Assembly: GCF_024700885.2 (NCBI RefSeq)
Contig: NZ_CP117016.1
DNA length: 64,000 nt
From: Escherichia coli
GTDB lineage: Bacteria > Pseudomonadota > Gammaproteobacteria > Enterobacterales > Enterobacteriaceae
Direction: 5' to 3' (one strand)
Shown piece by piece: positions 17,620 to 21,761 of the stretch. Under the pieces are notes generated by a model. That model saw only the letters and a program-made list of their open reading frames with translations, was not told the DNA's origin and ran no database searches. The translations under genes were made by a program, and so were the position numbers. Every line of letters starts with the position of its first letter. Position 1 is the first letter of the stretch.

Positions 17620-18063
17620 TTAGCGTTGACGATTAGCGATACTGTTCGTTTCCGGGTTCATACGCTCGCGGCGTGAACGCGCGGGCGTCCAGTCCAGCGC
17701 GCCAATACGCACCAGATAAACCAGACCTGCCAGTAACACAAAAATAAAAATTGCAGCTTCCACAAAGCCTACCCAGCCGCTTTCGCGGATAGAGGTTGAC
17801 CATGCGAACAGATACAGCGCTTCAACGTCGAAGATAACGAAGAACATGGCCACCAGATAAAACTTGGCGGACAGGCGTAAGCGGGCGGAGCCGACCGAGT
17901 CGATACCGGATTCAAACGGCACGTTTTTCGACCTCGCGCGTGCGCGACCGCCTAAAAACCAACCGCCTACCAGCATCAGGCAACACAGGCCAATGGCAAC
18001 GATAAGAAAGATAGCGAATGCCCAGTGATGAGCGATGACTTCAGTGGATGTTGACATACTCAT
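17620..18063 (-). CDS. nuoA: NADH-quinone oxidoreductase subunit A
   Basis: 147-aa membrane ORF; first gene of the operon. Confidence 0.95.
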
Positions 18064-18611
18064 TGCTTACTCATCAAAAGTAGCGCCAGATTCACTGCTC
18101 TTCACGGCAGATGGACGCCACATCGATTCATGGGGAGGAATAAAAAAAACCTTACAATCACTGTAGAAATTCTTTTATACAGCTAATTGATGTGGTCTTT
18201 TACTCCTTTCTATAACCTTTTGTCAACTTTAACAAAAGTTTCTTCACATTAGTTTACATAATATCAACACCATTAGCATTTAATGCCCTTTCACCCCAGA
18301 TCCTTGACGACTCCAGGATAATTAGATGTTGTTGAATCGTGTCCGTTGTGAAGCAATGGAAAAAATACGGGTCTATTTTGACAGGAATTTGTGTCGATTC
18401 CTCCCCCCAAAAGAGAGTATTTTCTTGATCTGTGACACGCTTTTGTCATTCCATAACAAAAACGCAGCAACAAATTTACGTATTTTTTAACATCATTGTA
18501 GCAGGTGATTTTTTTCAGGCGATTATTTGTGCGTTCGGGACGTGAATCTCTGGTGATTGAAAAATGAACAGTTTTGTACGTTCTGCACGATACGAGGAAG
18601 GCTTTTTACTA
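18064..18611 (-). promoter_or_regulatory. nuo operon promoter/leader region (AT-rich, about 550 bp)
   Basis: Long AT-rich non-coding region upstream of nuoA; from established knowledge the nuo promoter is complex; individual sites not resolved here. Confidence 0.45.
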
Positions 18612-18657
18612 AAAAAAAGCCGCTGGGGTTTAAAACACCCCCAGCGGCTCGTTTTTA
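18612..18657 (-). terminator. Rho-independent terminator downstream of lrhA (bidirectional-looking)
   Basis: Hairpin gccgctggggg...cccccagcggc flanked by an A-run (plus strand) and a T-run. Confidence 0.55.
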
Positions 18658-18692
18658 CACTATTGTCTCAGAAATTATCTATGGTCCGTCGA

Positions 18693-19634
<942 letters not shown>

Positions 19635-20543
19635 TTATCACTTACTGGCGGCTCATACTGAGCTGGTTAATGCTGTGCACACACAAACAAGCAATTCCAT
19701 TTGTAATGTGCCTCCCTGGCAGTTTCATCCGGAACCCGGACGAAAGTAAAAATGCATATGAGTTGCACTAAAAAAGCGACTCACATTGTTCCGTTATAAT
19801 GCCTGAAGTAGATCACAGAATATATCTTCAGGAATCGCATATCTATTAAGTTACTCACTCTTTTGTATTTATGACATGCGCGTGTTTGTATAAATGTAAA
19901 TGTGAGTCCTTGTTCCACTCTCGTGCAGCATCGCTGGTCATACGCGAACACGTACAAACAGCAATGGTGAGGCGGCATCAAGAGCAGGGATCCGTCATTT
20001 ATGCGAGCATTTTACCCCAAAAACCTTTTATTTATAAGGGTCATTGCGAATTATCTGATGCAAAGTTATGTTATGTTAGGCAAAGTAATCTTCTATTATT
20101 AATAAGCACAACAAAACCTTTTTGAATATTAAATAATTAGCATCATCCTCATTCATTAATCCCGCTTAACAATAGTTTCACACCTTGCACCCATTACGAC
20201 ACCTCGGAAATCATCACGCTGTTAAACTCTCCGTAATGCGGAAATATCATCATCACGATTCATTAGTGAATTCTTAAACGAGGCATTTTCAAACAATTAT
20301 CTTACAGATAAAAAAACCACACTCACAATTAAGAATCAGAACAATTCACTACATAACATTAATTACTAAGCATATACACCTCATTATTTTGCCATTATTA
20401 AGTTATTAACAGCACAATCGAGTCTTCCCCTCTGGCAAAATCTTATTCTGCAGACCTTCAAAACGCCGTCCTGGGGGAGTACATTGTTCTAAGCTGACTT
20501 CCACGGCAGGGAGTGGCGATAACAGCAAAAAAGGTCAAGATTC

Positions 20544-21761
20544 ATGTCCCCCATTGAAAAATCCAGCAAATTAGAGAATGTCTGTTACGACATCCGTGGT
20601 CCGGTGCTGAAAGAAGCAAAACGCCTGGAAGAAGAAGGTAACAAGGTACTGAAACTGAACATCGGCAACCCTGCCCCGTTCGGTTTTGACGCGCCAGATG
20701 AAATCCTCGTTGACGTGATTCGCAACCTGCCTACCGCTCAAGGGTATTGCGATTCCAAAGGGCTTTACTCCGCGCGTAAAGCCATCATGCAGCACTACCA
20801 GGCTCGTGGCATGCGTGATGTTACCGTGGAAGATATTTACATCGGCAATGGTGTATCGGAGCTTATCGTTCAGGCAATGCAGGCATTGCTGAACAGCGGC
20901 GACGAAATGTTGGTTCCTGCACCTGATTACCCACTATGGACCGCGGCGGTTTCGCTCTCCAGCGGTAAAGCGGTGCATTATCTTTGCGATGAATCCTCTG
21001 ACTGGTTCCCGGACCTTGATGATATTCGCGCTAAAATTACGCCTCGTACGCGTGGGATCGTTATTATCAACCCAAATAACCCAACTGGCGCGGTATATTC
21101 CAAAGAGCTTTTAATGGAGATAGTGGAGATTGCACGTCAGCATAATCTCATTATCTTCGCCGATGAAATTTATGACAAAATTCTCTACGACGACGCTGAG
21201 CATCACTCAATTGCGCCGCTGGCACCTGATCTGCTGACTATTACCTTTAACGGACTGTCGAAAACGTACCGCGTTGCTGGCTTCCGTCAGGGGTGGATGG
21301 TGTTGAACGGGCCGAAAAAACACGCCAAAGGTTACATCGAAGGTCTGGAAATGCTGGCCTCAATGCGCCTGTGTGCTAACGTTCCTGCGCAACACGCCAT
21401 TCAGACTGCACTAGGCGGTTATCAGAGCATCAGTGAATTTATTACTCCCGGCGGGCGTCTTTATGAGCAGCGTAACCGCGCGTGGGAATTGATCAACGAT
21501 ATTCCGGGCGTTTCCTGCGTGAAACCGCGCGGTGCGCTGTACATGTTCCCGAAAATCGACGCCAAACGCTTTAATATTCACGACGATCAGAAAATGGTGC
21601 TGGATTTCCTGTTGCAGGAAAAAGTTCTGTTGGTGCAAGGGACGGCATTCAACTGGCCGTGGCCGGATCACTTCCGCATTGTCACGCTACCGCGTGTCGA
21701 TGATATCGAGCTGTCTTTGAGTAAGTTCGCGCGTTTCCTTTCTGGTTATCATCAGCTGTAA
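20544..21761 (+). CDS. alaA: Glutamate-pyruvate aminotransferase (PLP-dependent, class I)
   Basis: 405-aa ORF; the lysine in the SKTY motif is the likely PLP-binding residue; matches AlaA/YfbQ. Confidence 0.93.
   Translation: MSPIEKSSKLENVCYDIRGPVLKEAKRLEEEGNKVLKLNIGNPAPFGFDAPDEILVDVIRNLPTAQGYCDSKGLYSARKAIMQHYQARGMRDVTVEDIYIGNGVSELIVQAMQALLNSGDEMLVPAPDYPLWTAAVSLSSGKAVHYLCDESSDWFPDLDDIRAKITPRTRGIVIINPNNPTGAVYSKELLMEIVEIARQHNLIIFADEIYDKILYDDAEHHSIAPLAPDLLTITFNGLSKTYRVAGFRQGWMVLNGPKKHAKGYIEGLEMLASMRLCANVPAQHAIQTALGGYQSISEFITPGGRLYEQRNRAWELINDIPGVSCVKPRGALYMFPKIDAKRFNIHDDQKMVLDFLLQEKVLLVQGTAFNWPWPDHFRIVTLPRVDDIELSLSKFARFLSGYHQL

Follow-up and report, generated by a model that had tools for sequence, protein, structure and literature searches.

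Complex I, the product of the nuo operon, is where enterobacteria mainly couple aerobic respiration to energy conservation. In the window analyzed here, a stretch of 64,000 nt from an Escherichia coli contig (NZ_CP117016.1), a long non-coding region separates the first nuo gene, nuoA, from the neighboring gene lrhA, and the question arises what this DNA does. A first-pass annotation had taken its length to suggest a long leader; regulatory DNA acting on the promoter, or a gene that escaped annotation, are further answers that we weighed against each other.

Layout of the gap and the end of lrhA

The nuoA reading frame occupies 17620..18063 and that of lrhA 18693..19631, both on the minus strand, and the intergenic region between them (18064..18692) measures exactly 629 bp, as first annotated. 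The description of the gap as AT-rich and as lying upstream of a 13-gene nuo operon was accurate as well: its G+C content of 38.8% is lower than that of the window (52.1%), of nuoA (53.4%) and of lrhA (49.6%), and 13 nuo reading frames follow head to tail on the minus strand from 18063 down to 3039. The interval 17950..18800 matches E. coli chromosomes at 100%, with nuoA and lrhA as the sole annotations among the matches listed, and 5421 genomes carry the gap stretch. The locus is the same as the K-12 nuoA-N promoter region studied before (Bongaerts 1995; Wackwitz 1999; Park 2013; Kim 2012, 2018; Chareyre 2019); the two have the promoter, the pair of ArcA sites and the target of RyhB in common, except that the -10 element reads TAAAAA in K-12 and TAAAAG here. 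In MG1655 the arrangement is the same with a gap of 630 bp, and the window differs from it by eight substitutions and one indel, five of these nine differences falling into a spacer at 18494..18610 and three more into the adjoining lrhA 3' UTR and terminator. Taken together, the 629 bp are the already known multi-regulator control region of nuoA-N, the complex I operon, to which the terminator of lrhA and a structured leader of moderate length are added. The gap is ordinary, but very tightly conserved, and its ~500 bp outside the leader consist of the lrhA 3' UTR with the terminator, a spacer of ~117 bp and ~300 bp of regulatory DNA. The gap on the other side of lrhA, between lrhA and alaA (19632..20543), is longer still (912 bp, 38.5% G+C); it contains the word TGAATCG at 20256..20262 on the minus strand, and the lrhA transcription start site (TSS) with a 371-nt 5' UTR (11 reads) in Kim 2012 lies near window position 20002.

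The lrhA-proximal end of the gap (18611..18692, minus strand) holds the 3' UTR of lrhA and its intrinsic terminator, which we identified by folding, as inverted repeat I1, and by comparative folding. The G+C-rich stem of 12 bp, nine of them G-C pairs, is formed by 18650..18639 with 18628..18617 around a loop of 10 nt; it starts 42 nt past the lrhA stop codon and is directly followed by a run of six to eight U residues that ends at 18611. A context of 106 nt around it folds at -34.7 kcal/mol (z = -3.95). Hairpins followed by a U-run, with differing stem sequence, were found in all 21 intergenic regions that were folded (20 other loci and the window), and the terminator first annotated at 18612..18657 is thus real. 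A search for perfect stems recovered 13 of 81 terminators, and folding with RNAfold revealed that the hairpins exist, with mismatches. Given an A-run at 18656..18652 ahead of the stem, the terminator looks bidirectional. Our automated terminator scan missed it because the loop of 10 nt exceeds the limit of 8 nt, and the sigma-70 scan likewise missed the nuoA promoter described below, so we did not count the scan results against either element.

Two further observations concern this end of the gap. A conserved word, GGUAACAAAAUGUAAGUG, lies ~20-45 nt past the lrhA stop codon and before the terminator hairpin in most non-Escherichia genera (L004, L018, L037, L043, L052, L060, L078 and others among our loci) and is degenerate in E. 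coli. On the plus strand, a reading frame of 152 codons (18557..19015) overlaps the terminator and the 3' end of lrhA in antisense orientation; it is most likely spurious. Between the terminator and the conserved DNA lies the fast-evolving spacer (18494..18610, ~117 bp), where mean identity to the E. coli base is 0.32 and 3% of the alignment columns are at least 90% conserved. Gaps of 937, 748 and 747 bp were observed in Intestinirhabdus alba, Kosakonia oryziphila and one Buttiauxella assembly (L013, L059 and L073), lengths that imply insertions of 120-310 bp in the spacer part.

Promoter and conserved upstream DNA

For comparison we used the best 80 NuoA loci, one per species, from 22 named genera of Enterobacteriaceae, a set without Yersiniaceae, Erwiniaceae and Pectobacteriaceae. 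In all 80 of these loci lrhA lies upstream of nuoA, and the gap between them measures 619-634 bp in 63 of the 80, so its length is more than chance. We aligned 78 gaps with MAFFT and measured identity to the E. coli base; this conservation analysis, a kind of check proposed with the first-pass annotation, revealed strongly blocked conservation. As a baseline, codon positions 1, 2 and 3 of nuoA reach identities of 0.94, 0.98 and 0.69, with 25% of the third-position columns at 90% or more. The best-conserved segment of the gap is -50..-1 relative to the mapped nuoA start (identity 0.95, with 88% of columns at 90% or more), and upstream of it we distinguish block C (18270..18290, mean identity 0.81), block B (18328..18346, mean identity 0.95) and block A (18363..18493, mean identity 0.76, with 56% of columns at 90% or more). 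The sequence between the conserved blocks is 37-44% identical. One locus in the collection (L056, CACSKA010000019.1) is titled Chryseobacterium sp. 18061, yet its lrhA-nuoA locus is enterobacterial and nearly matches the one in Citrobacter sp. 18056 (L057) from the same study; the assembly is probably mislabelled or contaminated.

The distances between the conserved elements vary little upstream of the promoter. Within the best 80 loci the internal spacing of block A is 24 bp in all 80 species and a further distance between conserved words upstream of the promoter is 63±1 bp in 79 of 80. Block B and the -35 element are 117±1 bp apart in 78 of 81. Downstream, the distance from the -35 element to a conserved CCUCCCC word in the transcript ranges from 82 to 93 bp, a variation of 11 bp. 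The rigidity upstream is what protein-binding DNA would give and the flexibility within the transcript what RNA loops would give, and the constancy to ±1 bp across 80 species points to a fixed nucleoprotein architecture on the upstream DNA.

The core promoter (18192..18241, minus strand) was assigned from the mapped start, from listed hexamers and from conservation. It combines a perfect -35 element (TTGACA, 18226..18221, 6/6), a spacer of 18 bp and the -10 element TAAAAG (18202..18197, 4/6). In Table S1 of Kim et al. 2012, who sequenced 5' RACE products enriched for 5'-triphosphate ends from MG1655 in a single condition, mid-exponential growth, the nuoA TSS is placed at 2403222 with 4218 reads and a 5' UTR of 128 nt, and a minor TSS at 2403219 with 1744 reads and 125 nt (U00096.2 coordinates). 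These correspond to window positions 18191 and 18188, and the 51-nt upstream sequence printed with the major start ends at 18191. The major start is 6 nt past the -10 element, and both this distance and the spacer length are those of a sigma-70 promoter (spacing of 16-19 bp, start 5-9 nt downstream). In genomic SELEX the nuoA promoter, TTGACA-18-TAAAAA, is listed among those bound by RNA polymerase with sigma-70 alone. The automated sigma-70 scan, which is stricter, reported no site in the gap because the -10 element is without the final T. The last base of this element, 18197, is the sole difference from MG1655 within the conserved part of the gap: TAAAAG is shared by the window, E. albertii and one other E. 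coli, whereas K-12 and all other genera have TAAAAA. The -35 element is located inside a palindrome of 13+13 bp (AAACTTTTGTTAA-AG-TTGACAAAAGGTT, 18241..18214, inverted repeat I5), and a third copy of the half-site, TGACAAAAG, is found 223 bp upstream. In the same TSS table a minor start with 40 reads (U00096.2 2403076, window 18045) lies 18 nt inside the nuoA coding sequence and is assigned to nuoB.

With the start mapped 128 nt away, the promoter is indeed not immediately upstream of nuoA. The long leader deduced from the length of the gap held in part: at 128 or 125 nt the leader is three to six times as long as the preferred 5' UTR length of 20-40 nt, but it accounts for just 20% of the gap.

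Two other 5' ends appear in the literature. The PBAD-nuoA-lacZ fusion of Chareyre et al. 2019 starts at TCTAATTATCC, and by mapping the oligonucleotide we found its +1 at window position 18326, which gives a leader of 263 nt; the ArcA positions in Park et al. 2013 refer to two TSSs, which by calculation lie at 18326 and 18153. Neither 18326 nor 18153 has reads in the Kim 2012 table, which goes down to 2 reads, and this table holds no other minus-strand TSS between 18191/18188 and the lrhA TSS. Position 18153 lies 2 nt beyond the 3' foot of hairpin H1 of the leader (see below), and it is plausible that this end reflects a reverse-transcriptase stop or a processing site. The end at 18326 would matter more: if the functional transcript started there or further upstream, as it might if the lrhA terminator were read through, the conserved DNA would be a structured leader of at least 263 nt. 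The position was used both for a functional RyhB-regulated fusion and as the reference TSS of Park 2013, block B lies at exactly -2..-20 of this start, and a 293-nt RNA from 18326 folds better than 200 of 200 shuffled sequences (z = -3.14), although so low a folding energy can also stem from palindromes in the DNA. However, besides the missing reads, conservation is lacking where the -35 region of this promoter would lie (identity of 0.44 between blocks A and B), the strongest conservation falls on the -35 and -10 elements of the downstream promoter, and spacing is rigid to ±1 bp upstream of 18226 and flexible in the transcribed part, as expected of DNA sites. A possible RNA contact fares no better: a 10-nt inverted match connects block A (GGGGAGGAAT, 18406..18397) with the UUCCUCCCC stretch of the leader (AUUCCUCCCC, 18141..18132), ~0.2 such 10-mers being expected by chance, but one-sided changes in it are uncompensated, and we rejected this long-range pairing. 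We therefore regard an upstream start of the functional transcript as unlikely. As the TSS data come from mid-exponential growth alone, there may be a condition-specific upstream promoter. Overall, our comparison of the three 5' ends argues that the TTGACA promoter with its 128-nt leader is the conserved one.

Which proteins occupy the upstream blocks? Block A (18363..18493, minus strand, -172..-302 from the TSS) carries the invariant words GCGTGTCNCAGATCAAGAAAATAC, GGGGGAGGAAT and CCTGTCAAAATA and holds the distal ArcA-P site. In Tables S1-S4 Park et al. 2013 give two ArcA ChIP-seq sites with their sequences, nuoA1 and nuoA2, and both sequences were found by exact match on the minus strand of the window: the proximal site nuoA1 at 18270..18240 (-79..-49) and the distal site nuoA2 at 18492..18450 (-301..-259), where TGTTAA direct repeats extend to 18504. 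Two or more TGTTAA-like direct repeats with 11-bp phasing, as in ArcA-P operators, are present, the in vivo occupancy being that reported by Park 2013, and TGTTAA-like words recur across the conserved blocks in other genera. ArcA is the sole regulator that can be placed confidently in the gap.

Fis, IHF, NarL and FNR are reported regulators of nuo, and Cra binds upstream of nuo in published ChIP-exo data and activates nuo on acetate. We scanned the gap for motifs of global regulators, as had been proposed earlier, which yielded Cra-like, CpxR-like and Fis-like matches, but all of these are weak consensus matches; scans with the consensus sequences of FNR, CRP, NarL, IHF, Fis, PdhR, Fur and IscR gave weak or no matches in the gap. 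Block B (ACGGACACGATTCAACAAC, 18328..18346, -137..-155), which adjoins the older +1 at 18326, contains a candidate Cra half-site: 18331..18346 matches 12 of the 16 positions of the consensus GCTGAAWCGWTTCAGC, with an exact TGAATCG at 18333..18339 on the plus strand, and is 99% conserved. Sixteen equally good matches occur in the 64-kb window and 0.16 are expected in the gap by chance, and we treat block B as a candidate Cra site and a lead only. Block C together with the proximal ArcA-P site (18240..18290, minus strand, the latter from ChIP-seq) contains the palindrome GCATTAAATGC and the Fis-like match. Overlapping the proximal ArcA site is a CpxR-like box (GTAAACTAATGTGAA, GTAAA-N5-GTGAA, 18257..18243), which has one mismatch to GTAAA-N5-GTAAA and is 88% conserved; published work states, without coordinates, that CpxR binds the nuo promoter directly. 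The assignment of factors to blocks A, B and C is tentative, the consensus matches being weak.

Conserved DNA of this kind could also hide an unannotated gene, for a small protein or a small RNA, in block A. A reading frame of 28 codons with a TTG start (18459..18373) lies inside the block and is recognizable in 50 of 78 species, and the block contains the strong Shine-Dalgarno-like sequence GGGGGAGGA. However, the recognizability of the frame follows simply from the conservation of the nucleotides: variation affects whole codons and first and second positions rather than third positions, conservation does not extend to the start region, and GGAGGA is not followed by a properly spaced start codon. 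Nor did we find a TSS mapped in block A by Kim 2012, an Rfam match in it, or an annotation of it in the E. coli matches listed, even though 5421 genomes carry the stretch. An overlooked gene in block A is thus very improbable, and we return to regulatory DNA as its preferred explanation. The small reading frames in the gap had been called spurious at first annotation, and this was borne out: the frame at 18291..18473 (60 aa, TTG start) has a recognizable counterpart in just 3 of 78 other species, and a conserved start, a ribosome-binding site and codon-like substitutions, as expected of a small protein gene, were not found together in this frame, in that of block A or in the upstream frames of the leader. 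Candidate upstream frames of 9 and 18 codons in the leader were also rejected, as other genera lose the start or gain an immediate stop.

Structure of the nuoA leader

The 5' UTR of nuoA (18064..18191, minus strand; 128 nt from the major and 125 nt from the minor start) was folded and compared across genera. Hairpin H1 (18155..18189), which corresponds to +3..+37 of the mRNA, is predicted in both the minimum free energy and the centroid structures, and in most genera a hairpin is predicted at this place with differing sequence. Next comes a U-run with the near-invariant UUCCUCCCC (18132..18150), a single-stranded, G-free stretch resembling an anti-Shine-Dalgarno sequence. The stem-loop SL2 (18080..18121) was obtained as the RNAalifold consensus of 81 leaders; its outer stem pairs GUGGCGUC (18121..18114) with GGCGCUAC (18087..18080), its inner hairpin pairs CUGCC (18110..18106) with G.GCAG (18100..18095), and a U-tract directly follows it.

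Both structures show compensatory changes, as expected of a conserved cis-acting RNA structure. For H1, 73.8% of the cells are paired, compared to 28-43% with slid partners, and 69 cells are changed on both sides, compared to 36±4 in shuffles (reached by 0 of 500), with 9 of 11 pairs showing changes on both sides. For SL2, 98.8% of the cells are paired (16-51% with slid partners) and 49 are changed on both sides (8±4 in shuffles, again reached by 0 of 500); 3 of the 8 outer pairs are changed on both sides, and switches from G-C to A-U and from C-G to U-A were seen in Enterobacter, Leclercia, Lelliottia, Siccibacter and Trabulsiella. These statistics ignore shared ancestry, and the MAFFT alignment behind them is not structure-aware. 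The folding energy of a 158-nt leader RNA is ordinary (z = +0.2). An Rfam 15 scan of 17800..20700 with E up to 1 returned no family at the gathering threshold, the sole match being a chance-level one of AaHKsRNA41 on the terminator (score 19.6 bits, threshold 97, E = 0.16). We also discarded repeat I6, in which the 5' end of the mRNA would pair with 18128..18118, since, judged by eye, changes in Enterobacter break it.

Between SL2 and the invariant UAAGCAAUG lies a U-rich stretch, and the ribosome-binding region with the start codon (18055..18079, minus strand), which includes UAAGCAAUG, is the published pairing site of the small RNA RyhB. Under iron limitation RyhB represses translation at the nuoA start region, and pairing at the ribosome-binding site and start codon was demonstrated with compensatory mutations (Chareyre et al. 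2019). RyhB contains CAUUGCUU. Our own RNAduplex calculation of RyhB against the leader was not discriminating for the core (p ~0.09) and meaningless for the full small RNA, for which reason we place the site by the published genetics. As regards the start codon itself, the annotated ATG of nuoA (18063) is TTG in some Kluyvera species, and a second ATG two codons downstream (18057) is invariant together with the next codons; the true start codon may deserve a check.

Could the leader stop some transcripts before they reach nuoA, as a transcription attenuator or as an element that senses a ligand or protein? SL2 covaries and in all genera runs directly into a U-tract (UUUU), the U8 run comes after H1 and after a small hairpin that could form instead, and the G-free, C/U-rich stretch of the leader resembles a Rho loading site. 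The details fit such a role poorly, however: the hairpin of SL2 is long and interrupted, with just 4-6 U in the tract after it, a distance of 4-7 nt separates the U8 run from the foot of H1, neither structure was flagged by the terminator scan, and the leader had no Rfam match at E up to 1, the chance-level match elsewhere aside. In addition, the main text of Adams 2021 does not name nuoA among the genes with 3' ends inside the 5' UTR. We consider attenuation or sensing in the leader quite improbable, and favor a leader that would shape stability and translation of the mRNA within a gap that acts mainly at the DNA level.

A probable composite control region for complex I

As a whole, the gap is most likely a composite control region of nuoA-N that acts mainly at the level of DNA, which in our judgment explains it best. 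Transcripts of lrhA would end at the canonical intrinsic terminator (18650..18611), and ~117 bp of unconstrained spacer come next. The following ~300 bp (18493..18228) would bind several global regulators at fixed distances from each other and from the promoter; binding of ArcA-P at two places has been shown, and Cra, CpxR, Fis, IHF, NarL and FNR are added from the literature. On this DNA a stereospecific nucleoprotein complex may assemble and tune initiation at the one strong sigma-70 promoter, TTGACA-18-TAAAAG, in response to oxygen and nitrate, to the carbon source, to the phase of growth and to stress on the envelope. Transcription from 18191 or 18188 would then produce the leader of 128 or 125 nt, in which H1 probably guards the 15-kb mRNA against decay that depends on the 5' end. 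SL2 is located just ahead of the weak Shine-Dalgarno sequence and probably leaves the U-rich start region with its invariant UAAGCAAUG accessible, which would serve ribosomes as well as the Hfq-dependent RyhB.

Several known systems resemble parts of this arrangement. Like cydAB, cyoABCDE, sdhCDAB and pdhR-aceEF, nuo has several separated ArcA-P direct-repeat sites in a long AT-rich upstream region, and in Park 2013 nuo, cyo and pdhR serve as examples where ArcA has two or three binding regions. In contrast to the other ArcA-P respiratory operons, one nuo site lies 260-300 bp upstream of the TSS and the other ends at -49, so simple occlusion of the -35 and -10 elements is not evident. The leader resembles those of sodB and sdhC, where RyhB with Hfq is likewise an sRNA pairing at the ribosome-binding site and start codon, and a U-rich stretch beside a hairpin precedes a weak Shine-Dalgarno sequence; the nuoA leader, however, is longer (128 nt) and has an extra conserved 5' hairpin and the CCUCCCC word. 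The ompA 5' UTR is an example of a leader with a 5'-terminal stabilizer hairpin. By analogy, H1 may have a putative stabilizing role, as it also starts within 2-3 nt of the 5' end and keeps its structure and not its sequence.

What appears modestly new is the upstream spacing, kept to ±1 bp across the family, together with the covarying helices of the leader; in the nuo literature, the two founding papers aside, we found no mention of either. A more far-reaching interpretation, which we hold only tentatively and regard as doubtful, is that the leader carries an undescribed, Enterobacteriaceae-wide cis-regulatory RNA module that does more than present the RyhB site (as attenuator, as a switch for Rho loading and anti-termination, or as a dock for small RNAs or proteins), alongside an enhanceosome-like complex upstream. 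If this were true, the module of H1, the U-run with UUCCUCCCC, and SL2 would set the synthesis of complex I after transcription, and the spacing to ±1 bp over 270 bp upstream would mark a complex unusually rigid for a bacterial promoter. Expression of nuo affects the proton-motive force and the uptake of aminoglycosides. The accepted picture of nuo control is unchanged by our findings, which add that its upstream 270 bp are constrained in spacing as well as in sequence and that two leader helices with compensatory changes are candidate determinants of mRNA stability and of control by small RNAs.
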